From Tissierellia bacterium (lineage in GTDB: Bacteria > Bacillota > Clostridia > Tissierellales > Tepidimicrobiaceae): a stretch of 48,544 nucleotides of DNA. The notes beneath the pieces are model-generated. The model saw only the letters and a program-made list of their open reading frames with translations. It searched no databases and was not told the origin of the DNA. The position numbers and the translations under genes are program-made. Where the stretch lies: positions 1 through 48,544 of the forward strand of contig JAAZMA010000262.1 in the NCBI GenBank assembly GCA_012799055.1. The letters are read 5' to 3'. Shown one piece after another: positions 10,587 through 34,400 of the stretch. Position 1 is the first letter of the stretch; every line of letters begins with the position of its first letter.

Positions 10587-11977
10587 TGGATAGATTTACC
10601 AGAACTCCTATTTCCAATCAAGATCCAAAAGTTAGAGCAACAAATTTTGATGAAGTATGTCTTGGATATACAGAAGAAGAGGCAATTAAAGAGGCAAAGC
10701 GATGTATACAATGTAAAAAACCTACTTGTAGACCAAAGTGCCCTGTAAACATTGATATACCTGAATTTATAGGTCATATTGCCCAGGGAGAGTTTGAAGA
10801 AGCTGCCCATTCCCTTGCAAAATACACTGCACTTCCTGCAGTTTGTGGAAGAGTTTGTCCACAAGAAACTCAATGTGAAAGTACATGTATTTTAGGGAAA
10901 AAAGGGGATCCTATAGCCATAGGAAAACTTGAAAGATTTGCAGCAGACTGGGCTAGAAAGAACAATATAGATGTAGGTAAGACTAAGGAGAAAAATGGTT
11001 TTAAAGTTGCAGTAATAGGCTCAGGTCCTGCAGGAATTACTTGTGCAGGAGATTTAGTGAAGGAAGGTTATGATGTTACAATATTTGAAGCCTTACATGA
11101 ACCAGGAGGAGTATTAGTATATGGAATTCCTGAGTTTAGACTTCCTAAAGAAGATGTAGTGAAACCAGAAATAGAAAATTTAAAGAAATTAGGAGTAAAA
11201 ATAGAAACTAATGTAATTGTAGGTAGAACTGTAACCATAGATGATTTAATGGAAAAAGAAGGTTTCCATGCAGTATTTATTGGTTCAGGTGCAGGACTTC
11301 CAATATTTATGGGAATACCTGGCGAAAATTTAAACGGGGTATTTTCAGCAAATGAATTTTTAACTAGAAACAATTTAATGAAGGCCTTTAGAAAAGATTA
11401 TGACACACCTATTAAGGTAGGGGAAAAGGTAGCAGTTATTGGTGGAGGAAATGTGGCTATGGACGCTGCTAGAACTGCCTTAAGACTTGGTGCTGAAGTA
11501 TATATAGTATATAGGAGAACTCAAGAAGAACTTCCAGCTAGAGTAGAAGAAGTCCATCATGCCATGGAAGAAGGAGTTAAGTTTGAATTTTTAACCTCAC
11601 CTGTAGAAGTCATAGGCAATGAAAATGGCTGGGTGAAGGCTATTAGATGTCAGAGAATGGAATTAGGGGAACCAGATGCTTCTGGTAGAAGAAGACCAGT
11701 TCCAATAGAAGGTTCTGAATTTGAATTTGATGTAGATACAGTAATAATGGCATTAGGTACATCACCAAATCCATTAATACCCTCTACTACAGAAGGACTT
11801 GAAATAAACAAATGGCAATGTATTGTTGCAGATGAAAATGGGCAAACTTCTAGAGAAGGAGTATTTGCAGGTGGAGATGCTGTAACTGGCGCTGCCACAG
11901 TAATACTTGCCATGGGTGCAGGAAAAGACGCTGCAGCTGGCATAGACAAATATATAAAAGAAAAATACGGTAAATAA
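10586..11977 (+). CDS. nfnB: NfnB / GltD-like NADPH-dependent oxidoreductase large subunit (homotetrameric glutamate synthase-like)
   Basis: 'CIQCKKPTCRPKCPVNIDIPEFI' and 'CGRVCPQETQCESTC' Fe-S motifs. 'VAVIGSGPAGITCAGDL' and 'VAVIGGGNVAMDAAR' are Rossmann loops. Confidence 0.85.
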   Translation: MDRFTRTPISNQDPKVRATNFDEVCLGYTEEEAIKEAKRCIQCKKPTCRPKCPVNIDIPEFIGHIAQGEFEEAAHSLAKYTALPAVCGRVCPQETQCESTCILGKKGDPIAIGKLERFAADWARKNNIDVGKTKEKNGFKVAVIGSGPAGITCAGDLVKEGYDVTIFEALHEPGGVLVYGIPEFRLPKEDVVKPEIENLKKLGVKIETNVIVGRTVTIDDLMEKEGFHAVFIGSGAGLPIFMGIPGENLNGVFSANEFLTRNNLMKAFRKDYDTPIKVGEKVAVIGGGNVAMDAARTALRLGAEVYIVYRRTQEELPARVEEVHHAMEEGVKFEFLTSPVEVIGNENGWVKAIRCQRMELGEPDASGRRRPVPIEGSEFEFDVDTVIMALGTSPNPLIPSTTEGLEINKWQCIVADENGQTSREGVFAGGDAVTGAATVILAMGAGKDAAAGIDKYIKEKYGK

Positions 11978-12127: not shown

Positions 12128-13498
12128 ATGGATGAGTGTCATAGTAGTAAAAATGCAATAAGAGACACAGTACTTAAAACTGCAGGGCCTGTATTAATAG
12201 AAGTGTTTTTAGGTACCCTTTTTGGCATGGTAGATATGATGATGTTAGGGAGAATTGCCAATCCAGGGGAAGCAGCTGCATCTATTGCAGCAGTAGGGAT
12301 TACAAATCAGGTAGTATTTATTGCATTATCTTTAGTTCAATCTCTAAATGTAGGTGCAACAGCCATGGTGGCTAGATATGTGGGAGCAAACAAAGAAGAT
12401 AGAATTGAATCTGTAGTAAGACATGTAATATTACTTACTCAAGTCTTATTAGTATTGCCTATATTTATATTAGGACTACTTTATTCAGATAAAATAATGA
12501 AATTATTAGGTGCACATAGTGATACCTTAATGTTTGGAAGTAATTATTTTAAAGTAATAATAATTGGACTTATTTTTCAAGCTTTTAATTTTTCCATATA
12601 TGCAGTACTTAGGGGAGCAGGGGACACTAAAACTCCTATGAATATTAATATTAAGGTAAATTCTTTAAATGTAATAGGAAATGCAATACTTATTTATGGT
12701 TTATTTGGTTTTCCAAAATTGGGAGTCACAGGAGCGGGGATTTCTACTAGCTTTTCTCAAATGATAGCTTCCATATTGTTAATTAGACACATTTTGAAAA
12801 AAAATACTATTATTCAAATAGATTTAAAAAAAAGATTTAAATTTAATAAAGACATAATGTACAATTTAATCAAAATTGGTATACCTGCATCTTTAGAACA
12901 AATTGCCTTTAGAGTAGGGATTTTAATTTTTGTTCGCATTGTTTCTTCTTTAGGAACTGTAGCTTTTGCTACTCATCAAATATGTTTAAATATATTAAGT
13001 CTTTCCTTTACACCGGGACAAGCCTTTGGTATAGCAGCATCTTCTTTAACAGGTCGAAGCCTTGGGGCAAAGGATTCAGATTTAGCAGAAGAATATATTA
13101 AAACCAGTGGTAGAATTGGTGCCATAATTGCCACTATTATAGGTGTAATATTCTTTTTCTTTGGCTCTTTTATTGCTAGTTTATATACAAAAGACCCACA
13201 AGTAATAAAGGAAGCTACAAAAATACTTAAAGTAATGGCTTTTGTGCAGCCTTTTCAATCCTCTCAATTAATTACTGCTGGTGGTCTTAGGGGAGCAGGA
13301 GATACAGTATGGACATTAGTTGCCATATTTTTCTCAGTATTAATTATAAGAGTGGTTTTAGCCTATTTATTTATAATAAAACTAGAATTAGGTTTAATAG
13401 GTGCCTGGTATGCTATGTTCTGTGATCAATTTGTAAGATGGGCTTTAATAAAATTAAGATTTAAAACTAATAAGTGGAAATATATTAATATTAGATAA
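12128..13498 (+). CDS. MATE family efflux transporter (second copy in the window)
   Basis: About 12 hydrophobic helices, with 'LRGAGDTKTPM' and 'LRGAGDTVW' MATE repeat motifs. The ATG at 12128 lies 5 nt after GAGGTGG; the listed GTG at 12119 sits inside that SD. Confidence 0.9.
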   Translation: MDECHSSKNAIRDTVLKTAGPVLIEVFLGTLFGMVDMMMLGRIANPGEAAASIAAVGITNQVVFIALSLVQSLNVGATAMVARYVGANKEDRIESVVRHVILLTQVLLVLPIFILGLLYSDKIMKLLGAHSDTLMFGSNYFKVIIIGLIFQAFNFSIYAVLRGAGDTKTPMNINIKVNSLNVIGNAILIYGLFGFPKLGVTGAGISTSFSQMIASILLIRHILKKNTIIQIDLKKRFKFNKDIMYNLIKIGIPASLEQIAFRVGILIFVRIVSSLGTVAFATHQICLNILSLSFTPGQAFGIAASSLTGRSLGAKDSDLAEEYIKTSGRIGAIIATIIGVIFFFFGSFIASLYTKDPQVIKEATKILKVMAFVQPFQSSQLITAGGLRGAGDTVWTLVAIFFSVLIIRVVLAYLFIIKLELGLIGAWYAMFCDQFVRWALIKLRFKTNKWKYINIR

Positions 13499-13519
13499 TA
13501 TTTTAATTGTATTACAAAT

Positions 13520-13558
13520 AACTACCCTTTTTAAGGCCTGGCCCTAGAAAGGGTAGTT
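13520..13558. terminator. Bidirectional hairpin between convergent genes; it overlaps the last 9 codons of the minus-strand flavoprotein gene
   Basis: Stem AACTACCCTTT / AAAGGGTAGTT with an internally self-complementary loop (AGGCCTGGCCCT). T-rich sequence follows on the plus strand. Confidence 0.65.
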
Positions 13559-14583
13559 ATTTTTATAGCAAAATCCTTGGCCTCTTTTTCTATATTGGGT
13601 ATATTTAAAATCGCACCTTTATCATTAGCTGTAGCCATTAAGGAAAAGTATGGAGGTAGTCTAAAGGTTTTGTTTATATTTAAACTACTAATTAATTGTT
13701 TGGCTAAGGCATCTCCACCAGAATGGCCAGAGACTATAATGGAAAATATGCTTTTATTAAAAAATTTTGTCTTTCTATATAGGGCAGTAAGCCTATTAAT
13801 TAAGGCTACTATATTTGCCCCAAGCATATCATTATAATTTGGACAAATAAATACTAAAATGTCGGATTCTAATATAGCTGGATACACTTCTTCTACTACT
13901 ATTCCGCCGTAAAAACATTTCATTTCACTTCCAAAATATTTACAGGTTTTATAGGGACATCCTTTACAATCTACAATATTTCCATTGCCTATATTTATTT
14001 CTTGAATTTCCATATCTAAATTAGATTTTACCATATCCCATAATGTTAAAGTGTTGGAAGTTGCACGATTACTAGAGTGTAATGCTAATAATTTTGGATT
14101 TTTTATATATGAAACCTTATCATTTACAAATCTCTCTCCTAATTCTCTACATTGATATAGACAGATTTCTTCTAAATCCATATTATAAACTTTTTTTAAG
14201 GGAATAAGATTGTCTAAATTTCCAGTGGCTTCAACCATAGGTCGCCCTACAAATCTACAACCTAATAAATTAGCTTTAAATATTATAGATTGAGCAGCTG
14301 TTTTGGTAAATAATTGATAATTACTATGGATTAATACTATGGCACTGGAACCATATAGGGCATCATTTCCCCTTAGGAATAATTTTTGAAATATATTATT
14401 TAAATTGCTGCTTTCTCCAGTTATAGGTAATTCTATTGCAAAAATAATTCTTTTATTTCTTAAATCTGGCAATTCACCATGGGGCTCAACTATTATATAA
14501 GGAATGCCTTCTAAAGTATTATCTATCATTTTATTTAAAAATGGAGAAGGTTTTTCAGGTAGAATTAAACAATATTCTATCAT
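13531..14583 (-). CDS. Two-domain flavodoxin-fold protein. The C-terminal half is NADPH-dependent FMN reductase / iron-sulfur flavoprotein (Isf)-like with a compact 4-Cys motif
   Basis: C-terminal half: 'LLALHSSNRATSNT' (FMN phosphate loop GSxRxxSxT type), 'DCKGCPYKTCKYFGSEMKC' (CX2CX4CX8C) and 'ILVFICPNYNDMLGANIVALINR'. The N-terminal ~165 aa looks like a degenerate flavodoxin-like domain. The start overlaps the upstream stop (ATGA). Confidence 0.6.
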   Translation of the reverse strand: MIEYCLILPEKPSPFLNKMIDNTLEGIPYIIVEPHGELPDLRNKRIIFAIELPITGESSNLNNIFQKLFLRGNDALYGSSAIVLIHSNYQLFTKTAAQSIIFKANLLGCRFVGRPMVEATGNLDNLIPLKKVYNMDLEEICLYQCRELGERFVNDKVSYIKNPKLLALHSSNRATSNTLTLWDMVKSNLDMEIQEINIGNGNIVDCKGCPYKTCKYFGSEMKCFYGGIVVEEVYPAILESDILVFICPNYNDMLGANIVALINRLTALYRKTKFFNKSIFSIIVSGHSGGDALAKQLISSLNINKTFRLPPYFSLMATANDKGAILNIPNIEKEAKDFAIKITTLSRARP

Positions 14584-15830
14584 ATAATACTCACTAGCCT
14601 TTCATAAGTGTTATTTATTTTTTTGAACAAAGCCTTTGGCAAAGGCAATTGCTCTATTTCTATTTGATTATTTTTTAATCTACATTTAGAACCTATATAT
14701 GCCTCTCCCATATAGGTGGAACCATAAAACCAATCCCCTTTAATAGTTGAAATTATAGACAAGGCTCCAGAAGACAAACTAGGTGCCACATAGGGTTTAT
14801 AGCCTAATTTCCGAACTTCCTTATTAGCATTAATTGTTTTTTCAGTTAAATAATTGGATAGTTCTTCATTGTAGTTTTTTATACTATTGGCTATTATAAG
14901 ACCTTCACCATGGGGGCCGAAGGCTCTACCTTCATCTAAATAATGGGTAGTTTCATTAGATTTTTCTCCATAGTATGAAGCCCTTCCATTCATAACCCCT
15001 AGACCATAACCTATAATTTGATTGGAAGCTAGTCCCTTAAAATCAAAATCTCCATTTTCATCTTTATTGCTTTCTAAAAAAACTACTTTACATAGTAAGT
15101 CCACTGGATCCGATACTACTGCAAAAATTCCTTTGAAATTTTTTTCCCTTGCTAAAAAGGCGTATTCCTTAATAATTTCTGAATTACTATTAAATTGAGC
15201 CATTCTTACATCCTCCACTGGACTACCTACTGGTGGTATTCCTTTGGAGGCACAAAATACAAACATATCACAATTAAACAAATTTTCCTTATCTATTATA
15301 TTTACTGGTGGAAAGGCCTTTTCATGGAAGGGTTTTCTAATTTGATTTAATTCATATTCCCATCTTTGTAGCCGATTTGGATTTCTATCATAAATTCCAA
15401 TATTCTCTATAGTTTCTTCACCTAATAGTCTTAATCCTATGGCTAAAGTACTACCTACATCTCCCAATGCTAATAGATTTATCTTCCATTTTCTTTTAGT
15501 TTCTAAATTTAAGACATTTTCCCAATTTGGGTATTTAGTGTTTATAGATATTACCATGTCTTGATTAATTTTTTCTATTATCCAATTTGGTACTTTGCTT
15601 GAATAATTTTCATTGTCCAAAAGTAATAGATGAATACCTTCTTCTCTATTAAACAATAGGGAAGGGTGATTTATTAAATAGCTTTGCCTAGATTTCAAAG
15701 GCTCTATTCTATTTAGGAAATAAAGTTTTCCACTATTAGATTTGGCTTCTTCTTCACTAATAGTATGAAAATTTCTATACTCATAAAGGGAGAAGAAATA
15801 TTCGCCCCTGTATTTGTAATAATTAAACAT
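14580..15830 (-). CDS. Lactate/malate dehydrogenase-family Rossmann protein with a ~115-aa N-terminal extension and atypical substrate-site residues
   Basis: 'KINLLALGDVGSTLAIGL' (GxGxxG type), 'IGIYDRN' (acidic residue after beta-2), 'MFVFCAS', 'VVSDPVDLL' (= VSNPVD), 'GVMNGRASYY' and 'FGPHGEG' (= GEHG catalytic His). Confidence 0.65.
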   Translation of the reverse strand: MFNYYKYRGEYFFSLYEYRNFHTISEEEAKSNSGKLYFLNRIEPLKSRQSYLINHPSLLFNREEGIHLLLLDNENYSSKVPNWIIEKINQDMVISINTKYPNWENVLNLETKRKWKINLLALGDVGSTLAIGLRLLGEETIENIGIYDRNPNRLQRWEYELNQIRKPFHEKAFPPVNIIDKENLFNCDMFVFCASKGIPPVGSPVEDVRMAQFNSNSEIIKEYAFLAREKNFKGIFAVVSDPVDLLCKVVFLESNKDENGDFDFKGLASNQIIGYGLGVMNGRASYYGEKSNETTHYLDEGRAFGPHGEGLIIANSIKNYNEELSNYLTEKTINANKEVRKLGYKPYVAPSLSSGALSIISTIKGDWFYGSTYMGEAYIGSKCRLKNNQIEIEQLPLPKALFKKINNTYERLVSII

Positions 15831-15837
15831 ATTATCC

Positions 15838-18800
15838 CTACTTTCTATTTAAATCTTTATGAATTATATTTTCAATTCTTATTAAATGTTCCAAATCCCC
15901 TTCTAGACAAGCTGAAGGTTTTTGATTTCCATAGTATTCCATAGACTTATAGGTATCTGGTCTTCTTGGGGAGGTTAATACTTCACCTAAATTTCTTATG
16001 ATTAAACTTTTTTCATTAATTTCTTGATATACTTGTTCTATTGATTTAAATATTTCTATTGCATTAATTAAGCAGGTTTCTGATAAATTATATATGGCTT
16101 TTGCAGTAGTGTTTTTTATAAAAGATGGAGAGGCATAGGGAAGAATTAAATTGATACTAGGAATTAAATTATCATAATCAGTACCTTCCCTATAGACCAT
16201 ATCTCCACCTATAAATGGGTATTGATCTGATTCGTTAAACCAAATTTTTAAATTAGGTACAAAATAAGCAGCATCTACATCTAGATTTTTAATATCTCCA
16301 ATTTCTTTGCCACGGCCTGTAAGTATTCCAACTATAACTTTATTAATATCTATATTAGCTTTTTTTATAATAGGTTCTATTACATTTAATCGATAGCCTT
16401 TATGCAGTAAATCATCTACTAAAATCATTGGTCTATTAAAGGATTTAAAAACTTTAGCCTGATTTTCTAAACTTAAATAATTTGGATAGGCAGCAATAGT
16501 AAAATCAGTAATCATTGGATTAAATATTTTCTCAGTATGCATAGTTTTTGTAACAGTGTTTGGCAAAATCATTCCATTTAGTATAGAACCAAAGGGTACA
16601 CAAATATTTGGGCCAAGGGTTCTTACTTCTTTCTGTAATATAGATACTTTATTGGCATCGCAAATTTTTTGTATTAATTTACTATATATCATATCTTCAT
16701 TAAAGGATAATAAAAGTTCTCCAGGATATAAACTAGATAATACCTCCTTTAAAGCTTTTCTAGATTTTCTAATGGTTTCTTGAATTTGAGGATTACTATC
16801 ATAAGGTGGTTTTAATAGATTTCCCAAATCTTGATTTAATGTCATAGGATTGTTCATATCCACTATAAATAAAGGACTATTATTGTAGTTAAAAGGGGTT
16901 TCTATAAAGCCTTGGATTTTCAAGCTTTCTTCTAGCTCTTTTCTGTTTTTATAACTTAAAGCATTTTTAAATAGGGCATAATTGTAATCATTTGCTATAA
17001 TATATGCTAAAGTTTCATTTAATACAGTTTCAATTAAATAGTCATCGGTATATTTAGTGTATATACCAGATAAAACAACTAATTTTCCCCTTGAATGAAT
17101 TCTTAGATATTGTGTTATATCCCTATTTTTAAATTCCTCAAATAACAAACTAGAGGGAACCCAATAAAATGTAGAAAATCCTAATATGGAATTGTCCTCT
17201 GTGTTTTTTACCAACAAAATTCTATATTCCAATTTATTTCTTAATTCATAAAGGGCTTCCATATACAATTCATGTCCAAATTTTTTCTCTAAATATTCTA
17301 TAAAATTGTCATTTAAATCCTCAATTATTTCAATTTCAATAGTTTTAGTTTGAACTAAAGATTTATACTGAGGTTCTCTCAAATATAGACCATATCTATA
17401 AATATATTGCTGAGCCAATGGGTCAACCTGTTTGGAAATATCCCTATTTAAATCTATAAAATTTCGAATTTGAGTAGAAGAAATATCTTCATATTGAGGA
17501 GGTAGACTTAAAATAAGCACATCTCCCTTTAAATTTTCAAGTCTTTTTTCTAATAGTATATCCTCGTTTTCTTTAGATTGTTGAGATTTTCTATCAAATA
17601 TTATATGAGATAATTTATTTAATTCTCCTTCTCTTTCATAGGCAGAAGCGTTGATTAATACATCAGTACCTACTACCATATAGACTTGTCTATTTCCAAA
17701 TAAATCTTGTAATTTTAGCAAATCCTCATCATTACTAATATTAATTGGAATTTCACTGGGAAAAAGAAATATATCTTTTTCTTGGGCTATGGTCATATTT
17801 ACAATATCTCTTCTAAATTTGTGAGGTTGGGTCCTTTTAGACCAGGAAAATTCATCTACTGCTAAATATACTTCAAATCCCAAATCTCTAATTTCCAGGG
17901 CAATTTCCTTATGACTTAGTGAAAAAGGGTCAAAGCTTCCAGGGAAAAATGCTACTTTGTCTTTGCTACTCATTTCTATATTTCCATGGTAAAATTCATA
18001 ATCTAGTATAAATCTATAAACATGATTTAAAGAAGCAGAATTATTTAAAAATAGAAATTTATCTTCTTCTTTTTGTGGTAATAGTGTAAACATTTTTTTG
18101 CCAATTAGTGTAAAAATATTATGTTTTTCTGTTAATAATAGATTATTGGAATTAAGTACTTGACTCCCAAGTATTCTAAAGGCTTCAGTTTTTATTTCTT
18201 TATCATAAGATCCCATACCACTTAATAGTATTCCTAATAATCGATATAGCCTTTCTTCATATACATTTTCATCCTCTTTAAATCTATCTTTATACTTAGG
18301 ATAATGTTCTATACATATTCCAGTGGTTCTTAAAAGCAAAAATACTATTTGAGTATTTGATTGTTTAATTTTTTCTTCAAAATCATCTATTATTTCATCT
18401 AATTCAGTAGGCTGTAAATATAACAATAGTTGACCTAGATAATCTGGTATATATTTGGTAAATTGGTAATTTTGCATTTCTAAAGCTCTTAACAATTCAA
18501 CGGCAATATCATTTCTTTCTCCTAAGGACAAAAATTCAAATATATTTAATAGAGTATGTCCTGCATAATTGCGAACCTTTTCTACTGCTGAAACCTTTAA
18601 TAAATTACAAAAATGCATACCAGTATGAAGTCCTGTAGTATCTGGAAATTTTTTAACTTGGTCATAAAGTATATCTATATTTACTTTTTTGTTCATCCAA
18701 TCAGTGGCAGTTTTAAGATTATTTAAAAATATTTCTTGGATATTTTCTTCATCTTTTTCATAATTATACTTAAGTGTTTTTAATATTTTTTTCTCTAGAT

Positions 18801-20694
18801 TAAGTTTTTTGCCAATCTTATATTTTAAATAGTTTTCAGCAGTATAGGGAGAGGGGTAGGTGTTTTCTAAAAGCCAATTTTTAAGTCTAGATTTAAAATC
18901 CCTATTATCCCATAGTTCTCTATATATTTCATCTATAATATCTAAAGTAGTAAGTCTAATTTCTAAAAAATTAGAGTTTAATTGTTCCATAATGTAGTTT
19001 TCATATTTTTTTAAATTTTCTTCACTTAAATAATATATGGGAATATATTTTATTGTTTGAGATAAATACAATTGCCCTGTTGGAGATATGTTTTTATAGT
19101 TTTCGTAGTATTTTATTAAAATATTGGAGTATTTTTCAAAGTTTTTTATATTGGAATTATAAAATAAGGATTTTATTATGGTTTTTAAATTGTATTGCCA
19201 TTCAATGGGAGATTCTTCGATTTTATGATCTGGATAAAGTATATAATGTAGTAGATTGTCCAATAATCCTTCACTGGTAGTTTTAGGTTTTGATTTATTA
19301 ATAGATTTAGGTATTTCTTTTCTATATTCTTCATCATATTGGCTAATTAATAGTCCAATTAGTTCAGCAGCTTCTTTTCTAATATCTTCTTCATTGTGAA
19401 ATAGTAAATCTACCATAAAGTATAATGTAATTACTTTTTGTTTTTGAGTTAAATAATTGGAGTATTCTCTAAATATTTGAAGATATAATCGTAGTTTTCT
19501 CCAATTGTATTCAGAACGGGCCATTTCTATTATATTATTAAAAGATGTATCATCTAAAAATTTTGCCATTAAATCAATATTATGTTCAATTGCAAAGTAT
19601 TTTAAATTGTCTACAATATCTTCATTTTCCATTAGGGAAAAAGGTTTATTTACTATTATAGGATTTAGGCCTTTACTAAGAGTAGTATCTACTCCAAGAC
19701 TTATCATATAATCTTCAAAATCTTTTAATTTCCTATAAACTTTTTCATATCTTTTTTCTTTTTTAGCATCTAAATTATCCAATTTATTTAAAATTATATC
19801 ATAGGCTTCCTCTAGGGTGTAAATATACATTTTATACTCATTGTTTTGGATTTTATTTTTAACTCTAAAATCTGCATAAATAAGTACTAGGGATTCTAAA
19901 GGTAGATTTTCTAGTTCTAAATCCCAGGTAGAATGATTAGTTGCTATATGGCCAATTTTTTCTGCGTTAAATCTATTAAACCACTCTTCAGTATAATAAT
20001 AATGTAAATATGGCACTCTATGACTTTCTTCCTCCATAACACCGTATTTGCCAATATCATGTCCTAGTCCTGAGCCTGTTACAATACCTAAATCTATAGG
20101 TAGATTTAAGGATTTTAATTGTCTAGCAATATTTAAACTTAAATGATTGACCCCTACCACATGTTCTATAGTATTGTGTCCTGTAAGGGATAAATCTAAT
20201 TTCATTAACTCATATACCCAATTATTTAAAAAGGCAGTTTTAAAATTTAAATATTCTTTTAAATAATTAGTGTCTTTTTCTTCTTTTTCACTTAAAAAGG
20301 AGATAGGATATTTATATAAAAAATTATTTTCATCATAGTGGATTTCGTACTGGGAAAAAACTCTTAGTATATTTAAGTAAAATAGTACTAAGGGTTCTAA
20401 ACCTTTATGAAAATTTCCATTGTTTTTTTCAGGAAAAGATAATTTTAAAACCCAATTATAAATATATTGAAGCCATTCTATTTCTCCTATATCCCAATGT
20501 TTTCTATATAATGGGTAAAACAACTTCATTAAAGCTAGAGCATCGTATTTATTTTTCAAGACTATTTCCCCTAAATAGTCTTGAAAATCATTTCGATTTA
20601 CTATTTTTAAATAATCTTCATAATAAAATTTTAAATAATCTTTATTTATTTCTTTTAAAATTATTTGATATATTTCTCGTTGAGCCTTAATCAT
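15838..20694 (-). CDS. Uncharacterised 1618-aa multidomain protein: HD phosphohydrolase, HEAT-like repeats, NadD/PPAT-like nucleotidyltransferase, GNAT-like region, type-I phosphoribosyltransferase-like domain
   Basis: HD: 'IEHVVGVNHLS...GSGLGHDIGKYG...LIYADFRV' (aa ~170-280). Nucleotidyltransferase: 'VAFFPGSFDPFSLSH', 'MVVGTDVL', 'ISSTQIRNFI', 'YIYRYGLY' (aa ~912-1105). PRT: 'RPMILVDDLLHKGYR' (aa 1421-1435). HEAT-like: 'EEDIRKEAAELIGLL', 'DKEIKTEAFRILG'. The ATG overlaps the sdaAA stop (ATGA). Confidence 0.7.
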   Translation of the reverse strand: MIKAQREIYQIILKEINKDYLKFYYEDYLKIVNRNDFQDYLGEIVLKNKYDALALMKLFYPLYRKHWDIGEIEWLQYIYNWVLKLSFPEKNNGNFHKGLEPLVLFYLNILRVFSQYEIHYDENNFLYKYPISFLSEKEEKDTNYLKEYLNFKTAFLNNWVYELMKLDLSLTGHNTIEHVVGVNHLSLNIARQLKSLNLPIDLGIVTGSGLGHDIGKYGVMEEESHRVPYLHYYYTEEWFNRFNAEKIGHIATNHSTWDLELENLPLESLVLIYADFRVKNKIQNNEYKMYIYTLEEAYDIILNKLDNLDAKKEKRYEKVYRKLKDFEDYMISLGVDTTLSKGLNPIIVNKPFSLMENEDIVDNLKYFAIEHNIDLMAKFLDDTSFNNIIEMARSEYNWRKLRLYLQIFREYSNYLTQKQKVITLYFMVDLLFHNEEDIRKEAAELIGLLISQYDEEYRKEIPKSINKSKPKTTSEGLLDNLLHYILYPDHKIEESPIEWQYNLKTIIKSLFYNSNIKNFEKYSNILIKYYENYKNISPTGQLYLSQTIKYIPIYYLSEENLKKYENYIMEQLNSNFLEIRLTTLDIIDEIYRELWDNRDFKSRLKNWLLENTYPSPYTAENYLKYKIGKKLNLEKKILKTLKYNYEKDEENIQEIFLNNLKTATDWMNKKVNIDILYDQVKKFPDTTGLHTGMHFCNLLKVSAVEKVRNYAGHTLLNIFEFLSLGERNDIAVELLRALEMQNYQFTKYIPDYLGQLLLYLQPTELDEIIDDFEEKIKQSNTQIVFLLLRTTGICIEHYPKYKDRFKEDENVYEERLYRLLGILLSGMGSYDKEIKTEAFRILGSQVLNSNNLLLTEKHNIFTLIGKKMFTLLPQKEEDKFLFLNNSASLNHVYRFILDYEFYHGNIEMSSKDKVAFFPGSFDPFSLSHKEIALEIRDLGFEVYLAVDEFSWSKRTQPHKFRRDIVNMTIAQEKDIFLFPSEIPINISNDEDLLKLQDLFGNRQVYMVVGTDVLINASAYEREGELNKLSHIIFDRKSQQSKENEDILLEKRLENLKGDVLILSLPPQYEDISSTQIRNFIDLNRDISKQVDPLAQQYIYRYGLYLREPQYKSLVQTKTIEIEIIEDLNDNFIEYLEKKFGHELYMEALYELRNKLEYRILLVKNTEDNSILGFSTFYWVPSSLLFEEFKNRDITQYLRIHSRGKLVVLSGIYTKYTDDYLIETVLNETLAYIIANDYNYALFKNALSYKNRKELEESLKIQGFIETPFNYNNSPLFIVDMNNPMTLNQDLGNLLKPPYDSNPQIQETIRKSRKALKEVLSSLYPGELLLSFNEDMIYSKLIQKICDANKVSILQKEVRTLGPNICVPFGSILNGMILPNTVTKTMHTEKIFNPMITDFTIAAYPNYLSLENQAKVFKSFNRPMILVDDLLHKGYRLNVIEPIIKKANIDINKVIVGILTGRGKEIGDIKNLDVDAAYFVPNLKIWFNESDQYPFIGGDMVYREGTDYDNLIPSINLILPYASPSFIKNTTAKAIYNLSETCLINAIEIFKSIEQVYQEINEKSLIIRNLGEVLTSPRRPDTYKSMEYYGNQKPSACLEGDLEHLIRIENIIHKDLNRK

Positions 20695-21557
20695 AAAATC
20701 CTCCTTTTTATATCTTCGCCAGTAGGTGTAGCTGCTACACCACCTAGAGCAGTTTCTCTTAAAGATTCAGGCATGGCTTTGCCTACTTTATACATGGCTT
20801 CTACCACTTCGTCAAAGGGTACCATAGACTTTACACCTGCCATGGCTAAATCTGCAGATACTAATGCATTAATTACACCAGAGGCATTTCGTAATGCACA
20901 GGGGAATTCCACTAAACCTGCTACTGGATCACATACTAAACCCATAATATTAAGTAATGCAAAGGATGCACCATGTAGGGAAGTTTCTGGTTCACCGCCA
21001 ATCATTTCTATAATAGCTCCTGCAGCCATAGCAGCTGCTGCACCACATTCTGCTTGACATCCTCCTTCTGCTCCAGAAATAGTGGCATTTTTAGCTATTA
21101 TTTCTCCAATCCCTCCCGCTGTAAATAAACCATAAATCATTTCTTTTTCACTTAAATTATATTTTTCTGAAACTATTATTATGGCACTGGGAAGTATGCC
21201 AGATGCACCAGCTGTAGGAGCTGCTACTATTTTTCCCATGGAAGCATTTACTTCGGAAGTAGATAAAGCCATGGCCATGGCAGAATTAATAATTTCACCA
21301 CAAATGGTATTTCCCATATTTTTGTATTTTTCCACTTTTTTAGCATCTCCACCTGTAAGTTTCGATACAGAAATTACTTCTTTATTTAATGCAGATTTAG
21401 AGGAACTTATCATAGTATCTAAAACTAATTTCATATTATCTATTAATTCTTCATAGGGCAAACCTCTTTCTGCCATTTCTTTTGCTATTACTATTTCAGA
21501 AATTTTTTTATTTTGTTCATTACATAATTTTAATAATTCATTTCCTTTATTATACAT
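20691..21557 (-). CDS. sdaAA: L-serine dehydratase, iron-sulfur-dependent, alpha subunit
   Basis: 'TGGDAKK', 'NASMGKIVAAPTAGASGILP', 'ISGAEGGCQAECGAAAAMAA', 'LVCDPVAGLVEFPC' and 'ETALGGVAATPTG', colinear with Bacillus SdaAA. Confidence 0.92.
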   Translation of the reverse strand: MYNKGNELLKLCNEQNKKISEIVIAKEMAERGLPYEELIDNMKLVLDTMISSSKSALNKEVISVSKLTGGDAKKVEKYKNMGNTICGEIINSAMAMALSTSEVNASMGKIVAAPTAGASGILPSAIIIVSEKYNLSEKEMIYGLFTAGGIGEIIAKNATISGAEGGCQAECGAAAAMAAGAIIEMIGGEPETSLHGASFALLNIMGLVCDPVAGLVEFPCALRNASGVINALVSADLAMAGVKSMVPFDEVVEAMYKVGKAMPESLRETALGGVAATPTGEDIKRRIL

Positions 21558-21560
21558 ATT

Positions 21561-22229
21561 TTACCTCCCAATTGGATTGATTCCAGTAATATAAATGATT
21601 TCGTCTAAGGCTTTTATTTTATTAATAATAATATCCTCTATGGGACTGTCAATTTCCATAACCATAGTGGCAATTTTTCCTTCTCGTGAGACTTTCATAG
21701 TGGCAATATTAATGTCTTCATTTGAAAGTATTGAGCTAATTCTACTAATAGAGCCTTTTCTGTCTGTATACTTAATTAATATAGTTGGATAATTACCTGT
21801 AAATTCTATATTAATGCCATTTAAATTAGTAATTAATATATTACCACCACCTATAGATGAACCAATTAAATAATAGTCTTCCTTATTTTTATAATGAAAT
21901 ACAATTTTAACTGTATTGGGATGTTCATATCCTAAGTCTGTTTCTATAAATTCTATATTAATGCCTTTTTCCTTGGCAATATTTAATGAATCCTTAATTC
22001 TTTCATCGGAGGGTTCCATTCCTAAAACCCCTGCTACTAAGGCTCTGTCTGTTCCATGGCCTCTATAGGTTTTGGCAAAGGAACCATGGAGAAAAAAACT
22101 AACTCCTGTAAAAGAAGTATTGGCAATTTCTCGTCCAATTTTTCCAAGTCTAGCAGCACCTGCAGTATGAGAACTGGAAGGACCAATCATAATGGGACCT
22201 AATATATCAAAAACTCCATAATTTTTCAT
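21561..22229 (-). CDS. sdaAB: L-serine dehydratase, iron-sulfur-dependent, beta subunit (with C-terminal ACT domain)
   Basis: 'MKNYGVFDILGPIMIGPSSSHTAGAARLG' and 'GSFAKTYRGHGTDRALVAGVLG'. The preferred start is the ATG at 22229 (AAAGGA SD). The ORF track's upstream ATG at 22265 would add 12 aa. Confidence 0.9.
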   Translation of the reverse strand: MKNYGVFDILGPIMIGPSSSHTAGAARLGKIGREIANTSFTGVSFFLHGSFAKTYRGHGTDRALVAGVLGMEPSDERIKDSLNIAKEKGINIEFIETDLGYEHPNTVKIVFHYKNKEDYYLIGSSIGGGNILITNLNGINIEFTGNYPTILIKYTDRKGSISRISSILSNEDINIATMKVSREGKIATMVMEIDSPIEDIIINKIKALDEIIYITGINPIGR

Positions 22230-22297
22230 TTTATCATCCTTTCCCCGTTTTATTAATTTTAGCATTTAATTAAAATTATGGCAATAAAAAAGGAGGT

Positions 22298-22942
22298 CTA
22301 GCCTCCTAAGGTAATATCCTGTTCATTGTACCAATTTAGTGCATTGTAAAAATGTTCTTTTTTAAAATCAGGCCAATAATCCTCCACAACAAAAAAATCC
22401 GCATATACAGATTGAATGGGAGGAAAACCGCTAAGTCTTCTTCTACCGCCCCAGCGAATAATTAAATCCACTCTAGAAATATCTCTAGATTTAATAGAAT
22501 CCATAATATTATCATCTTTATTTTCTTTGGAAAAGGAATCTTTTAAATCCCATTGCCATCCATAATTTACAAGAAAATTTACTTTAGTTTTACCCTCTCC
22601 AAAGACTTGTCTTCTAATGGTAAAGGGAATTAAGGCCTTAGGAAACATATCTGTACTAGTATTGCCTACAACTAATAAAGAGGCATTTTCTTTTGCTAAA
22701 AGTTTTACTGCATCTATACAAGCTTGAGTAAAAGCCAATCTTTGAACCTTAGGTCTTTTAGTATTGTCCATTGTGAAACCATAGTATGTAATTTCTTCTA
22801 CACCTACTTTTTCACAAAGTTTAAATAATTCTAATCCAGGATTAAGACCTTTGTCATAGCCTTTTTCTTTAGATAATCCATTTTCTACTGCCCATCTTCT
22901 ATTTCCATCGGGAATAATTCCTATATGTTTAGGTATTCGCAT
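22298..22942 (-). CDS. Short, divergent cis-prenyltransferase (UppS family) homolog
   Basis: 'PKHIGIIPDGNRRWA' (= HxAIIMDGNxRWA), 'ITYYGFTMDN' and 'DLIIRWGGRRRLSGF'. It is only 214 aa, and the canonical RxSNFLLWQ motif is replaced by 'RLSGFPPIQ'. SD AGGAGG. Confidence 0.7.
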   Translation of the reverse strand: MRIPKHIGIIPDGNRRWAVENGLSKEKGYDKGLNPGLELFKLCEKVGVEEITYYGFTMDNTKRPKVQRLAFTQACIDAVKLLAKENASLLVVGNTSTDMFPKALIPFTIRRQVFGEGKTKVNFLVNYGWQWDLKDSFSKENKDDNIMDSIKSRDISRVDLIIRWGGRRRLSGFPPIQSVYADFFVVEDYWPDFKKEHFYNALNWYNEQDITLGG

Positions 22943-23003
22943 ATTTATCCTCCTAGAATTTTATAATGTATATTATTCCCAACATATTTTAAATAATTCA
23001 AGA

Positions 23004-23030
23004 AAAATGGACTATAAAAAGGTCCATTTT
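23004..23030 (-). terminator. Terminator hairpin at the end of the pspC-domain gene (overlaps its stop codon)
   Basis: Minus strand reads AAAATGGAC-CTTTTTATA-GTCCATTTT followed by TCTTGAATTATTT. Confidence 0.6.
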
Positions 23031-23424
23031 ATTCTTTATTAAGCACATTAATTATTATATAAAGTCCAAATATTATTAACAATACGGGCCAATACCTACC
23101 AATATTCATAATCTTGTGGGCAAATTGTGGCCATATTACTTTACTAAGCATTATGGTACCAATTACTATAAATGCAATGCCTATAAAAAAGGCAGTATTA
23201 TTTTTTGTTTTATCATCATAGTCTTGATAGATTACTCCATCGTCCTCAGGAATTATTAGTGCACAAATTAAATAAGCTAAAAAGCCAGGTCCTCCAGGCA
23301 TAAAAGCCAGTAATACCCAAATTATTCGAACTACTACAGGATCAATATTAAAATATTCTCCAATTCCACCACAAACTCCAGCAATAATTTTATCAGAACT
23401 GGAACGTTTCAATTTTTTATTCAT
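23029..23424 (-). CDS. PspC domain-containing membrane protein
   Basis: 'SSDKIIAGVCGGIGEYFNIDPVVVRIIWVLL' is a PspC-domain signature. Three to four hydrophobic helices follow. SD AGGAGGTG. Confidence 0.8.
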   Translation of the reverse strand: MNKKLKRSSSDKIIAGVCGGIGEYFNIDPVVVRIIWVLLAFMPGGPGFLAYLICALIIPEDDGVIYQDYDDKTKNNTAFFIGIAFIVIGTIMLSKVIWPQFAHKIMNIGRYWPVLLIIFGLYIIINVLNKE

Positions 23425-23555: not shown

Positions 23556-23987
23556 ATGTTTAATATATTTTCTCTAATATTTAAATACATCTTTATAGTA
23601 ATAATATATCTATTTATTTTAAGTATTATAAGATTAATATATTTAGATATAAAGGGTATATCCCAGGAGATTTCTGATGGAGGCAAATACTTAAAATTAA
23701 TAAACAAAAAGGAATCTTTATCTTTTAATGTAAAAGAATATTATCCACTCACAAAGTCTATATCCATTGGACGAAGTAACAATAATGAAATCGTATTAAA
23801 AGATCCATATATTTCAAAAAACCATCTAAAAATAGTAGAAGATGAAGGAGTTTTTTTCATAGAAGATTTAAACTCTGCCAATGGTACCTATCTTAATGGG
23901 GAAAGAATAATGGATGTGGTTAAAATTAAAAATGGTGATAGAATTAGAGTAGGACAAGTGGAGTTTTTATTTGTAGATAGAGAGTAG
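23556..23987 (+). CDS. Membrane-anchored FHA domain protein (FhaB-like)
   Basis: N-terminal TM helix, then an FHA core 'ISIGRSNNNEIVLKDPYISKNHLKI...EDLNSANGTYLNGERI'. SD GGAGG. Confidence 0.85.
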   Translation: MFNIFSLIFKYIFIVIIYLFILSIIRLIYLDIKGISQEISDGGKYLKLINKKESLSFNVKEYYPLTKSISIGRSNNNEIVLKDPYISKNHLKIVEDEGVFFIEDLNSANGTYLNGERIMDVVKIKNGDRIRVGQVEFLFVDRE

Positions 23988-23995
23988 GGGATATT

Positions 23996-25213
23996 ATGTT
24001 AGATAAAATAACTAGCCCTAGGCGACCTAGAAATTTGCTAGTTTTATTTGAATTAATGGCTATTGCATTATTGTTTATATATGATAGGGAAAACTTAGAT
24101 AAATTCACCATTATATCTGGAATAAGTTTAATACTTCTTATTTATGTTTCTAATTTTTTATTACCTAAAATATCCACAGGAGATAATTATATTTTTTTAA
24201 TAACTACTATGCTTTTAAGTATAGGAGTTATTATGATATATAGAATAAATCCTGCATTAGGTATAAAGCAAGTAATATGGATAGGTATAGGAATTTTATT
24301 ATTTTTTATTACTTATTTTATTGTAAAAAATATAAATGAATGGAGAAATTGGACTAATCTTTATTTTGGCTTATCTATAGTATTATTTGTTGCTACCCTT
24401 TTATTTGGAACCACTAAAAAAGGTTCTACTAATTGGCTTGAAATTGGCAGATTTAGTTTTCAACCAACAGAAATAATTAAATTATTATTAATTTTCTTAA
24501 TAGCCTCCTATTATGTAAATTACGATGAATACAAGGAGAAAAAATTTGGGCCCTATTATTTAACAGGGGCTGTATATTTATTTATTGGATTTTTGTTTTT
24601 ACAAAAAGATTTAGGAACAGTTTTAATTTTTTATTCCATATTTATTGCTCTTCAATTTATATATGAGGAAAATAGAAAATTAATATTTTATAATGTATTA
24701 CTTTTTGTAGTAGCAGGAGTAGCAGGTTTCTTTTTATTTGACCATGTTAGAATTAGATTTCAAATTTGGTTAAATCCATGGGAATATATAGACAATAAAG
24801 GCTATCAAATAACCCAATCCTTATTTGCCATTGCTACAGGAGGATTTTTTGGGACGGGGATTGGATTAGGACATCCAGACTTTATTCCAGAAGTATATAC
24901 AGATTTTATATTCTCTGCCATTTGCGAAGAAATGGGTATATTTGCTGGAATAGGTGTTATAATGTTATTTTTAATCTTAGTATATAGAGGATTTAAAATA
25001 GCCATTTCTCAAAGAGACAAGTTTTTTAGAATAGTGGCATTAGGTATAAGTATATTATTTGGAATTCAATCTTTTATTATATTTGGTGGAGTGTTAAAAT
25101 TAATACCTTTAACAGGTATTACCATACCCTTTGTTAGTTATGGAGGTAGTTCCATGCTATCTAGTTTTATAGCTTTAGGAATACTTCAAGTAGCATCAGA
25201 GGAATTGGATTAG
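23996..25213 (+). CDS. FtsW/RodA/SpoVE (SEDS) family peptidoglycan polymerase
   Basis: About 10 TM helices, with 'FQPTEIIKLLLI', 'QKDLGT', 'GYQITQSLFAIATGGFFGTG', 'TDFIFSAICEEMG' and 'IPFVSYGGSS'. Confidence 0.9.
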   Translation: MLDKITSPRRPRNLLVLFELMAIALLFIYDRENLDKFTIISGISLILLIYVSNFLLPKISTGDNYIFLITTMLLSIGVIMIYRINPALGIKQVIWIGIGILLFFITYFIVKNINEWRNWTNLYFGLSIVLFVATLLFGTTKKGSTNWLEIGRFSFQPTEIIKLLLIFLIASYYVNYDEYKEKKFGPYYLTGAVYLFIGFLFLQKDLGTVLIFYSIFIALQFIYEENRKLIFYNVLLFVVAGVAGFFLFDHVRIRFQIWLNPWEYIDNKGYQITQSLFAIATGGFFGTGIGLGHPDFIPEVYTDFIFSAICEEMGIFAGIGVIMLFLILVYRGFKIAISQRDKFFRIVALGISILFGIQSFIIFGGVLKLIPLTGITIPFVSYGGSSMLSSFIALGILQVASEELD

Positions 25214-25224
25214 GAGTTGACAAT

Positions 25225-34225: not shown

Positions 34226-34400
34226 AGAATATTTCTGCGATGTACGTTGACCCATATAATTCAACCGACATGGTGAACACGGGAGTTCGGGTCCAGTAAT
34301 GTAGAGCAGGCCTTAAATGGAAGTTCGAAATTATTGGCAGGGCACCCACCTTGTGAGAGGCGGGTGTGAATTAGTTGGGATGGACGGCATCGCGGTAATA
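34226..34400 (+). ncRNA. ssrS: Candidate 6S RNA (ssrS-like), ~175 nt
   Basis: It has its own promoter and a downstream long hairpin. The 5' end TATTTCTGCGATG (34230-34242) pairs with the 3' end CATCGCGGTAATA (34388-34400). There is an apical helix CCAGTAAT/ATTATTGG and a 3'-side hairpin CACCCACC...GGCGGGTG. The region is visibly GC-richer than its flanks. Its ends and the GGUCC...AGCCUUAAA segment resemble E. coli 6S RNA as I remember it. Confidence 0.5.

Follow-up and report, generated by a model that had tools for sequence, protein, structure and literature searches.

Among described systems, one of the closest comparisons is offered by the NadD-YqeK fusion of mycoplasmas, in which an HD hydrolase shares a polypeptide with a NadD-type domain and the HD diphosphatase was shown experimentally to proofread NadD products (PMC9426524). 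A similar pairing is found in BIG, a giant open reading frame on the reverse strand (15838..20694) of the window, the whole stretch of 48,544 nucleotides that was analysed. However, the HD domain of BIG does not belong to the YqeK family and lies ~600 aa upstream of the nucleotidyltransferase (NTase), across a HEAT solenoid. Moreover, in comparison with NadD and NadD-YqeK, BIG adds a GNAT-fold and a phosphoribosyltransferase (PRT)-like domain, as well as two obligatory redox partner genes.

BIG encodes 1618 aa followed by a stop codon. Its ATG start and the stop codon of sdaAA, the next gene upstream, overlap; a Shine-Dalgarno sequence AGGAGG (20700..20705, reverse strand) is present 5 nt 5' of this ATG (position 20694), within the end of sdaAA. 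The length of the frame (4.9 kb in DNA of ~28% GC) and the recovery of more than 4800 homologs in a homolog search, mostly of 1570-1640 aa, indicate that it is not a chance ORF. BIG is thus confirmed as a real protein of anaerobic bacteria, a single polypeptide uniting several enzyme-like modules, and it is among the largest conserved proteins of the Clostridia/Tissierellia and Atribacterota, across which it was found in at least 499 species genomes. These modules are an HD phosphohydrolase, a HEAT/ARM solenoid of ~550 aa, a NadD-colinear domain, a GNAT-fold domain and a divergent type-I-PRT-like domain, in agreement with the five-module parse of the preliminary description made from the sequence, all of whose quoted peptides lie in BIG where it had placed them. 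The AF2 model adds a helical region at the N-terminus (aa 1-145; 20260..20694, reverse strand), weakly conserved according to the conservation profile, and a C-terminal helical bundle (aa 1531-1618; 15841..16104, reverse strand). Residue conservation was counted over 331 homologs gathered by three clade-centred searches. In this set, the residues assigned to the putative active sites of the HD, NTase and PRT-like modules vary little or not at all, and the alignments indicate strict purifying selection on these sites. Such conservation is not what would be seen in a purely scaffolding protein, the outcome that the preliminary description had named as fatal to its reading. Sequence searches of the PDB with the whole protein, the HD region and the PRT-like region gave no match, and neither a curated family nor a solved structure defining the function of BIG was found.

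The HD phosphohydrolase domain (aa ~146-335; 19690..20259, reverse strand) was delimited with domain models and is marked by H178, H212-D213, H231, H254, D258 and D275, all seven invariant in 331/331 homologs. The Pfam HD model aligns with aa 175-275 and scores 21.8 bits, just short of its cut-off of 22; in a set of 25 family members the HD part of NF045665 matched all 25, TIGR00295 matched 21 and HDIG matched 14. Both the metal-ligand motif of the class (H...HD...H...H...D) and the HD fold family are therefore present, which confirms the domain proposed earlier. This is not the case for the parallel drawn at the same time with YqeK, the operon partner of nadD: no YqeK-named NCBIfam model appeared among the matches at E <= 1 of the 25 members (presuming that the release contains such a model), the nearest being NF045665 and TIGR00295, and an identity with YqeK (COG1713) was consequently rejected. 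Downstream of the HD domain, aa ~357-903 (17986..19626, reverse strand) were assigned to a HEAT/ARM-like alpha-solenoid on the basis of the AF2 model, Foldseek and PF02985, the latter recorded for some homologs. The model of aa 1-905 is all-helical (pLDDT 89), and its Foldseek matches include PP2A-A, CAND1, importins and designed ARM proteins. Two patches of the solenoid, aa 400-480 and 655-800, are conserved. The stacked helical-hairpin repeats of the HEAT/ARM class are thus predicted in BIG, and the HEAT-like repeats read earlier from the translation are borne out by the model.

The NadD/NMNAT-like nucleotidyltransferase occupies aa 910-1106 (17377..17967, reverse strand) and contains the motifs FFPGSFDPFSLSH, DEFSWSKR, VVGTD, ISSTQIR and YGLY. 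Its earlier recognition as a NadD-colinear domain holds: PF01467 matched above its cut-off (E 2.4e-7), NadD structures are the top Foldseek matches (TM 0.78 to that of M. tuberculosis), ~190 aa of the domain align colinearly with E. coli NadD, and the order of motifs (GxFDP..xxH, GxD, ISSTxxR, GLY) is that of NadD (COG1057). The final His of the HxGH-type motif and the GxD motif are conserved in 331/331 homologs, and ISSTxxR is intact, with S1073 and R1077 also in 331/331. In contrast to the HxGH of NadD, the family has S-x-(S/G)-H: the motif reads S-L-S-H in BIG, its first position is Ser or Thr rather than His, and its Gly is kept in only 71/331 homologs, Ser being found in 259/331. The FPG(T/S)FDP motif, for its part, is one that we take to resemble PPAT. 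With the curated NadD equivalog models (TIGR00482, NF000840 and related ones) scores are low: 38.2 bits at best, where the cut-off is 112.45, and 22-35 bits for the others, which have cut-offs of 150-187. Moreover, in an alignment with the E. coli-type NadD 6kg3, the elements of the NaMN pocket (PPHK/R, P-S-Y-T and the stacking Trp after GxD) are replaced in BIG by SWSKR, INIxN and Y1019, and these replacements (SWSK, INIxN, Y) are invariant in the homologs. Both the scores and the replaced base-pocket motifs indicate, at the level of sequence, that the NTase of BIG is not a NadD equivalog.

The fold of aa ~1115-1295 (16810..17352, reverse strand) is that of GNAT proteins. Foldseek retrieved 4lua, KKT23, the C-domain of ICL2 and TmcA from the PDB and many GNATs from BFVD, several at a probability of ~1.0, and the target-normalised TM to GNAT acyltransferases is 0.5-0.67; these include the C-domain of M. 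tuberculosis ICL2, which binds acetyl-CoA. However, the assignment is one of fold alone: BIG differs from these acyltransferases by the absence of the motif-A loop for the CoA pyrophosphate (Q/RxxGxG/A), the beta4-alpha3 loop being variable and unconserved, and by two helices inserted between beta3 and beta4 in the AF2 model. No Pfam match was obtained in this region in 10 members. The GNAT-like block noted earlier therefore stands as a fold, whereas a sequence signature and the CoA loop are missing.

The type-I-PRT-like domain (aa ~1325-1500; 16195..16722, reverse strand) is defined by the motifs CVPFG, PNTVTK, ILVDDLLHKGYR, W..E and GGD, of which ILVDDLLHKGYR, the PRPP-loop motif (nt 16390-16428), agrees with 11/13 positions of the PROSITE-type PRPP pattern. 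BIG resembles type I PRTs (PF00156; HPRT/APRT/OPRT and the PurR/PyrR sensors) in all parts of the PRPP-binding motif (strand, loop, helix and acidic pair), and the AF2 model has a beta-alpha-beta order in this domain. D1427 is conserved in 331/331 homologs and K1432, G1433 and R1435 in at least 92% of them, while the second acidic residue of the loop (D1428) is Asp or Asn, the latter in 108/331; the TGxT (T/S-G-x-T) phosphate loop of type I PRTs is replaced by HKGYR in BIG. The PRPP loop and PRT proposed by the preliminary description recur in 17/25 homologs as PF00156 matches in the same register at the loop (profile positions 87-141), but the window's own copy has no PF00156 match and all the others are sub-threshold, with a best score of 19.6 bits against a cut-off of 26.3. 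Foldseek, run on whole models so that NadD and GNAT matches occupy the top of the lists, gave two weak PRT matches, to viral APRT and PRT proteins. A profile search with the PRT-like region found no PRT in the PDB, and hhalign comparisons of its profile with single real PRTs from the fetched loci were insignificant, although one alignment was in register at the PRPP loop. The C-terminal half of BIG matches 340 of 1.84 billion clusters at E <= 1e-3; the 150 of these that were listed are all BIG-type proteins or fragments, and among them, unlike type I PRTs, the PRT-like domain is confined to the BIG family. The assignment is thus local and sub-threshold, and the domain is best described as divergent and PRT-like.

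An important feature of BIG is its linkage to two downstream genes on the same strand. The first (14580..15830, reverse strand) codes for an LDH/MDH-like NAD-binding dehydrogenase of 416 aa, which matches Ldh_1_N at 28.4 bits (cut-off 27) and LDH in a profile search of the PDB (E 1.8e-9). It shares with LDH/MDH the Rossmann GxGxxG, and the residues aligned with the active-site Arg and His of LDH are invariant, whereas it differs from them by an N-terminal extension of ~110 aa and by a score that falls well short of the equivalog cut-offs for LDH and MDH; an invariant Met presumably takes the position of LDH Asp168 (alignment by eye). The second gene (13531..14583, reverse strand), whose start overlaps the stop of the first, codes for a 350-aa protein with an FMN_red domain at aa 163-315 (PF03358, E 2.5e-18) and the motif C206-x2-C-x4-C-x8-C223. 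In 25 sequences the cysteines C206, C209, C214 and C223 never vary, and the HD-less clade B has them invariant as well. An FMN_red fold with a compact four-Cys putative [4Fe-4S] motif near the N-terminus of the domain points to an Isf-like iron-sulfur flavoprotein; the motif lies ~45-60 residues into the domain, which we take to be as in Isf of Methanosarcina. Unlike this protein, the partner carries an extra N-terminal domain of ~160 aa, and it has no match in the PDB by sequence. In 83 loci the order BIG, LDH-like gene, Isf-like gene is fixed on the same strand, with gaps mostly below 20 nt or overlaps. The LDH-like gene takes the second place in 77/83 loci and the Isf-like gene the third in 71/83, in several phyla, and no other conserved neighbour was found across the 83. 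Among loci lacking the partners, a real absence could be demonstrated in only two (L031 and L037, none within 10 kb), the others having a short flank. The preliminary description had suggested a self-contained assembly or editing line for a nucleotide-derived cofactor or signal; its overall interpretation is partly supported, but BIG is tied to these two genes rather than self-contained.

Relatives without the HD domain either retain the two redox partners or have an upstream PPDK_N dikinase-like gene instead. In clade C, which is HD-less, a PPDK_N ATP-grasp protein is encoded directly upstream in 6/6 loci, and the NTase site is degenerate in 4/8 sequences examined, while the PRT-like motifs persist; of all modules, only the PRT-like domain keeps its motifs throughout the three clades of the BIG superfamily. 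The combination of PPDK_N and a degenerate NTase is consistent with the replacement of one ATP-using activation module by another. Because HD-less relatives combine a dead NTase site with an intact PRT-like site, the PRT-like and adenylyl-transfer steps would not be obligatorily coupled. The partnership with an LDH-like protein and an Fe-S flavoprotein, together with the dikinase-like swap in a sister clade, outlines a modular system without a characterised member. Homologs are named in the source databases 'cytidyltransferase' or 'nicotinate-nucleotide adenylyltransferase', and the name 'cytidyltransferase-related domain protein', given earlier, is borne out. The NaMN adenylyltransferase name, which is propagating in databases, is doubtful, as it is contradicted by the NadD cut-offs and the pocket motifs. 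No published function of the family, which the preliminary description would have counted against its reading, was found in the literature, and searches centred on Tissierellia, Clostridium and Peptostreptococcaceae returned no well-studied model organism among the top homologs.

We tentatively propose, as a possible reading, that BIG forms the core of a complex by which an ADP-linked phosphoribosyl metabolite is made and edited. The reading draws on the domain folds, the conservation of the putative active sites and the gene linkage, all of which were observed, whereas each of the mechanistic steps is inferred; the family-specific C-terminal half, the NadD-YqeK precedent and the module swap of clade C also speak for it. 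BIG and its two partners would assemble in the cytoplasm, with BIG as the catalytic scaffold, to make and edit an ADP-linked (dinucleotide-type) small molecule. The C-terminal PRT-like domain of BIG would bind PRPP or a phosphoribosyl ligand to give a ribose-5'-phosphate adduct of some base or acid, the phosphate of which the NadD-like domain would adenylylate with ATP, and the HD domain would hydrolyse the product or wrong products, as YqeK fused to NadD does. The HEAT solenoid, like the non-canonical GNAT fold, may be a docking or ligand-binding element, and together they would hold the translationally coupled LDH-like dehydrogenase and Isf-like Fe-S flavoprotein. These partners may provide the base or change its redox state, and the base would then be a compound with a 2-hydroxy/2-oxo-carboxylate. 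Read from sequence, the assembly line suggested earlier, a PRT followed by an adenylyltransferase, is plausible. Several observations count against the complex as proposed: the sub-threshold PRT, with Asn as its second acidic residue in 108/331 homologs and HKGYR for TGxT; the GNAT fold without CoA loop; the Ser in place of the first His of HxGH and, in 259/331, of its Gly; the two loci that carry BIG without partners within 10 kb; and the existence of dead-NTase relatives, because of which the PRT-like domain could work without adenylyl transfer. This is also the case for the upstream regions, which do not point to a metabolite: neither the window nor 7 diverse loci have a riboswitch ahead of BIG, and Rex operators are not enriched in the 400 nt upstream of BIG in 70 loci. 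More speculatively still, BIG and its LDH-like and Isf-like partners may form an unrecognised machine of strict anaerobes that synthesises and edits a cofactor or signalling nucleotide of a new kind, an ADP-linked phosphoribosyl compound, with the PRT-like domain as its invariant catalytic heart and an interchangeable ATP-using module, NadD-like in two clades and PPDK_N dikinase-like in the third. The function of BIG, once known, could reveal a new nucleotide-derived cofactor or a new signal, or a new coupling of redox state and nucleotide metabolism in anaerobes.

Some of the same features can be read differently. PRT-fold domains of PurR and PyrR are sensors of PRPP or (p)ppGpp, HEAT solenoids are classic scaffolds, and a stoichiometric complex is suggested by the close linkage of the three genes and their overlapping stops. 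BIG might accordingly be a metabolic sensor or regulator in which ligand-binding modules (for an ATP/NAD-type nucleotide, PRPP or (p)ppGpp, or an acyl-CoA-like compound) set the activity of the LDH-like/Isf-like pair on the HEAT scaffold and HD is the sole real catalyst, possibly degrading a nucleotide signal. The retention of the architecture in the part of the superfamily with a degenerate NTase, and a GNAT fold devoid of CoA loop and sequence signature, would fit such a regulator. We regard it as rather unlikely, since in the clade of the window the NTase residues at the superfamily ATP-site positions are conserved in 331/331 homologs, a pattern no less expected of a catalyst than of a binding module, and a domain-profile search found no DNA-binding or signalling output domain in BIG. 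The pairing of an HD domain with a nucleotidyltransferase is also known from GlnD and CCA-adding enzymes, and by the same logic BIG could nucleotidylylate a protein or RNA gripped by the HEAT repeats, with HD removing the mark. HEAT-like repeats do bind proteins or nucleic acids, and the RNA acetyltransferases TmcA and Kre33 are among the Foldseek matches of the GNAT region; however, these two alignments have an rmsd of >20 A, the NTase is of the HxGH/NadD class, known members of which use small phosphate esters, and not of the pol-beta class of GlnD and CCA enzymes, and apart from the two redox partners no conserved gene for an RNA-binding or target protein lies nearby, which makes a macromolecule modifier distinctly improbable.

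Should the database name be right, BIG would be a housekeeping NaMN/NMN adenylyltransferase (NadD) with accessory domains for NAD salvage, its PRT-like domain making NaMN/NMN and its HD domain acting as YqeK. The ~190-aa colinearity, the best fold match and the source names all agree with this; NAD salvage does proceed by a PRT step and then an adenylyltransferase step, and hydrolase fusions exist in NadD-YqeK and also in NadM-Nudix, another hydrolase-NMNAT fusion. It is nevertheless very improbable: every NadD equivalog model scores at most 38 bits against cut-offs of 112-187, the PPHK, PSYT and W of the NaMN pocket are exchanged for invariant SWSK, INIxN and Y, the known PRTs for nicotinate and nicotinamide belong to type II and not type I, no YqeK model matches the HD domain in 25 members, and the obligatory LDH-like and Isf-like partners play no part in NAD salvage. 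We give the least credence to a ligase resembling CitC, in which the HxGH-type domain would make an acyl-adenylate from a 2-hydroxy/2-oxo acid delivered by the LDH-like enzyme and the GNAT fold would pass the acyl group to a thiol on the PRT-like domain, one similar to CoA or to phosphoribosyl-dephospho-CoA. Citrate lyase ligase indeed unites GNAT-like and cytidylyltransferase-like domains, the FPG(T/S)FDP motif is PPAT-like, the LDH-like partner has kept the residue that aligns with the Arg by which LDH binds the carboxylate, and BIG follows pantothenate genes in one genome. Against this, BIG has no Citrate_ly_lig family match, its GxD and C-terminal GLY motifs are NadD/NMNAT-like and not PPAT- or CitC-like, the CoA loop of the GNAT fold is absent, and the pantothenate context is a single case.

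Other contexts were considered for the locus. An anti-phage defence or mobile element reading was rejected: PADLOC gave no defence match on the BIG locus, and no carriage of BIG by a phage or true plasmid was found, the sole 'plasmid' match being a 2.6-Mb Acetoanaerobium replicon with no annotation in PLSDB. A link of the module to sporulation or dipicolinate was also set aside; the module is present in Atribacterota, which to our knowledge do not form spores. A preprint in which DPA synthesis by Isf proteins of Clostridium is put forward as a speculation concerns the generic copy number of Isf (10.1101/803486). Upstream of BIG, the window carries the L-serine dehydratase genes sdaAB (21561-22265, reverse strand) and sdaAA (20691-21557, reverse strand), an association found in only 14/83 loci and thus lineage-specific. 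Finally, in one genome BIG is preceded by pantothenate genes, namely panB and a gene for a DUF2520 protein that is presumably PanG-like.

The giant ORF of the window (BIG; 15838-20694, minus strand) is uninterrupted over 1618 codons in surroundings of only 25-30% G + C, and its ATG, preceded at 5 nt by a strong AGGAGG, overlaps the stop codon of the gene upstream. A search of 5.8 billion proteins found more than 4800 relatives, the best 120 of which are almost all 1570-1640 aa long with 95-100% query coverage. Given the long ORF, the AGGAGG and so many relatives of like length, BIG is a real gene and its ~1600-aa length a family trait. All the peptide strings read in the preliminary description were found in the translation at the positions assigned to them. 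When one genome of each species was scanned, at least 499 carried a relative, among them Tissierellia, many Clostridia, Atribacterota and one Calditrichales assembly. Two full-length paralogs (P0253 and P0282) apparently come from the same genome, that of Crassaminicella thermophila. Homologs carry automatic names only (“cytidyltransferase”, “nicotinate-nucleotide adenylyltransferase”, “HD domain-containing protein”), and literature searches found no study on the family. Every part of BIG is a known fold, while the whole system is without a characterised member; we rate it as belonging with the nucleotidyltransferase-hydrolase fusions of nucleotide-cofactor metabolism and as not categorically new.

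The HD domain and the helical repeats proposed earlier both hold. The HD phosphohydrolase domain (aa ~146-335) scores 21.8 bits with Pfam HD against a cut-off of 22, and in 25 members this region matched the HD part of NF045665 (25/25), TIGR00295 (21/25) and HDIG (14/25). Among their NCBIfam matches at E <= 1 none was to a YqeK-named model, and a YqeK identity was rejected on this ground. The AF2 model of aa 1-905 (pLDDT 89, pTM 0.84) is helical throughout and its Foldseek matches are PP2A-A, CAND1, importins and designed armadillo proteins, which supports a HEAT/ARM solenoid at aa ~357-903. In an alignment of 331 full-length homologs gathered by three clade-centred searches, the HD residues H178, H212, D213, H231, H254, D258 and D275 are invariant.

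The NadD-like nucleotidyltransferase (aa 910-1106) was likewise borne out, by PF01467 over its cut-off (E 2.4e-7) and by NadD structures as top Foldseek matches (TM 0.78) of the C-terminal AF2 model (aa 900-1618, pLDDT 81.6, pTM 0.83). In a profile alignment it is colinear with E. coli-type NadD over ~190 residues, GTFDPfslsH of the BIG family facing GTFDPVHYGH, sWsKRtqP facing PPHRPQP, vvGsD facing IIGQD, disstqiR facing NISATIIR and yGLY facing QGLYR. Invariant among the 331 homologs are G919, D922, H928, W951, S952, K953, R961, G1009, D1011, Y1019, S1073 and R1077; the HxGH-type motif is S-x-(S/G)-H, its third position being Gly in 71 of them. The following block (aa ~1115-1295) has the GNAT fold suggested for it, as seen in Foldseek matches in PDB and BFVD, but ten members lack any Pfam signature there, and a canonical GNAT identity was rejected. 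The β4-α3 loop, where true GNATs have their CoA-binding motif, is not conserved.

For the phosphoribosyltransferase (PRT) module also proposed at aa ~1325-1500, the AF2 model displays the strand-loop-helix-strand order of type I PRT around ILVDDLLHKGYR, and PF00156 matched 17/25 homologs in the same register (profile positions 87-141), always under the cut-off. BFVD gave two weak PRT matches, while Pfam did not match this domain in the window's own BIG, and neither a profile search of PDB nor hhalign against single PRTs was significant. The assignment is supported locally but not proven. In the 331 homologs, C1365, N1379, K1383, D1427, W1485, E1488 and G1497 are invariant, K1432, G1433 and R1435 reach at least 92%, and at position 1428, 220 sequences have Asp and 108 have Asn. 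Because the putative HD, nucleotidyltransferase and PRT-like residues are conserved, a purely scaffolding protein, the refutation envisaged beforehand, is ruled out for this clade. The C-terminal half is family-specific, since aa 1108-1618 found only 340 matches (E <= 1e-3) among 1.84 billion cluster representatives, and the 150 of these listed were all BIG-type proteins or fragments.

BIG is followed on the same strand by an LDH/MDH-like dehydrogenase (14580-15830, minus strand; 416 aa, Ldh_1_N) and an Isf-like flavoprotein (13531-14583, minus strand; 350 aa, FMN_red) whose start overlaps the dehydrogenase stop. Across 83 loci this order and common strand are fixed, with the LDH-like gene present in 77, at a median gap of 11 nt from BIG, and the Isf-like gene in 71. 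Contig ends explain nearly all missing partners, and only two loci truly lack both within 10 kb. In Clostridiaceae 35-E11 (L031:253-7161), BIG overlaps the end of a pyrB-pyrK-pyrD-carA-carB operon; in Marinisporobacter (L037:2378-7359), it is preceded by radical SAM, Phos_pyr_kin, DUF2520 (presumably PanG-like), panB and APH-type kinase genes. Clustering of all neighbouring ORFs gave no further conserved neighbour, and the serine dehydratase genes that precede BIG in the window recur in only 14/83 loci. The dehydrogenase profile matches LDH and MDH structures (E 1.8e-9) and retains the Rossmann GxGxxG and residues that align to Arg and His of the LDH active site; by manual alignment, an invariant Met occupies what we take to be the LDH Asp168 position. 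The flavoprotein has an additional N-terminal domain and, at the start of FMN_red, four invariant cysteines (C206-x2-C-x4-C-x8-C223), an arrangement shared with the iron-sulfur flavoprotein Isf. Defence, phage and plasmid searches rejected a defence-related or mobile identity. Upstream of BIG, neither a riboswitch (seven diverse loci and the window) nor an enriched Rex site (400 nt in 70 loci) gave a hint of its metabolite.

Shorter relatives (1075-1300 aa) among the matches to aa 1108-1618 lack the HD region, as they have a Met start and align from ~aa 350-395 of BIG; they form two groups. In clade B (P0370, P0430), Ldh_1_N and FMN_red genes follow. The LDH-like partner has 312-349 aa there (L088:3361-4299, L089:10794-11843) against ~415 aa beside HD-containing BIG; judging from these two clade B cases, the ~110-aa N-terminal extension of the partner appears to accompany the HD-bearing N-terminus of BIG. 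In L089, the three genes are followed (12884-17088) by two more for activase-like ATPases of the 2-hydroxyacyl-CoA dehydratase/benzoyl-CoA reductase type, one with BcrAD_BadFG and DUF2229 (976 aa) and one with DUF2229 (423 aa). In clade C (P0466, P0440, P0403, P0460, P0479, P0443), all six loci have directly upstream, 2-5 nt away or overlapping, a gene for an orthologous 850-900-aa protein (52-70% mutual identity) whose sole Pfam domain is PPDK_N, a dikinase-type ATP-grasp as in PEP synthase/PPDK (L086:5317-8004, L087:3-1694, L090:699-3278, L091:3449-5998, L092:3297-5996, L085:1-357). No LDH-like or Isf-like genes were seen near clade C where flanks suffice. Four of eight clade C-type sequences (P0466, P0460, P0456, P0403) have a degenerate nucleotidyltransferase site, with the motif His replaced by Asp, GxD lost and ISSTxxR degenerate (window aa 925-928, 1009-1011, 1071-1077), and their NadD-like domain looks like a pseudoenzyme; the PRT-like motifs of these four are intact. 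Judged by motifs, the PRT-like domain is the most constant element of the superfamily, because almost all eight retain CVPFG, VDDxxHKG(Y/F)R and WxxES..GGD despite this degeneration. The ATP-using module appears interchangeable.

Beyond the observed folds, site conservation, gene linkage and module swaps, we tentatively propose a four-step model, possible as a whole but held with low confidence. The PRT-like domain would form a phosphoribosyl adduct, the NadD-like domain would adenylylate it, the HD domain would hydrolyse the product or wrong products, and the solenoid would dock the two redox partners, which may supply or modify the base. The closest experimental precedent for such editing comes from mycoplasmas, where the HD domain of a NadD-YqeK fusion cleaves faulty products of NadD (PMC9426524).

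BIG might instead regulate the LDH-like/Isf-like pair as a ligand sensor, a reading we consider unlikely. It is doubtful that this nucleotidyltransferase-HD protein nucleotidylylates protein or RNA and removes the mark. A true NadD plus salvage accessories is very unlikely: NadD equivalog identity was rejected at 38 bits against at least 112, and the NaMN-pocket motifs differ in the profile alignment. A CitC-like acyl-adenylate ligase seems most improbable, and the remaining probability goes to something else.

Lineage-level synteny around the module (window 22298-23424, minus strand, and 23556-26628, plus strand; likewise L001 and L003) involves PspC (joined by LiaF-like genes in L001 and L003), a UppS-like cis-prenyltransferase that is short (214 aa) and falls just under the uppS cut-off, and a divergent FHA-FtsW-type cluster; in L001 the ORF after this cluster encodes a PBP transpeptidase. 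Immediately upstream of BIG, L003 has an amine-oxidase/phytoene-desaturase-like gene. The remaining features noted in the window all lie on the plus strand. In a 1545-aa ORF (60-4697), possibly truncated at its start by the edge of the window, a glucoamylase-like domain is joined by two supersandwich stretches and a catalytic domain of GH94; the product may be a glycan phosphorylase or cyclic-glucan-synthase-like protein. Neighbouring genes at 9708-11977 code for a DHODB-type Fe-S/FAD electron-transfer subunit and a Fer4_20/Pyr_redox_2 protein, a pair that resembles GltD/NfnAB/SudAB-type oxidoreductases. The sole Rfam match is a 6S RNA (RF00013, 86 bits; 34229-34402), and a 1794-aa protein (42093-47477) joins a Ser/Thr protein kinase to an AAA_16 (STAND-type) ATPase and TPR repeats, and has a GGDEF diguanylate cyclase domain at its C terminus.
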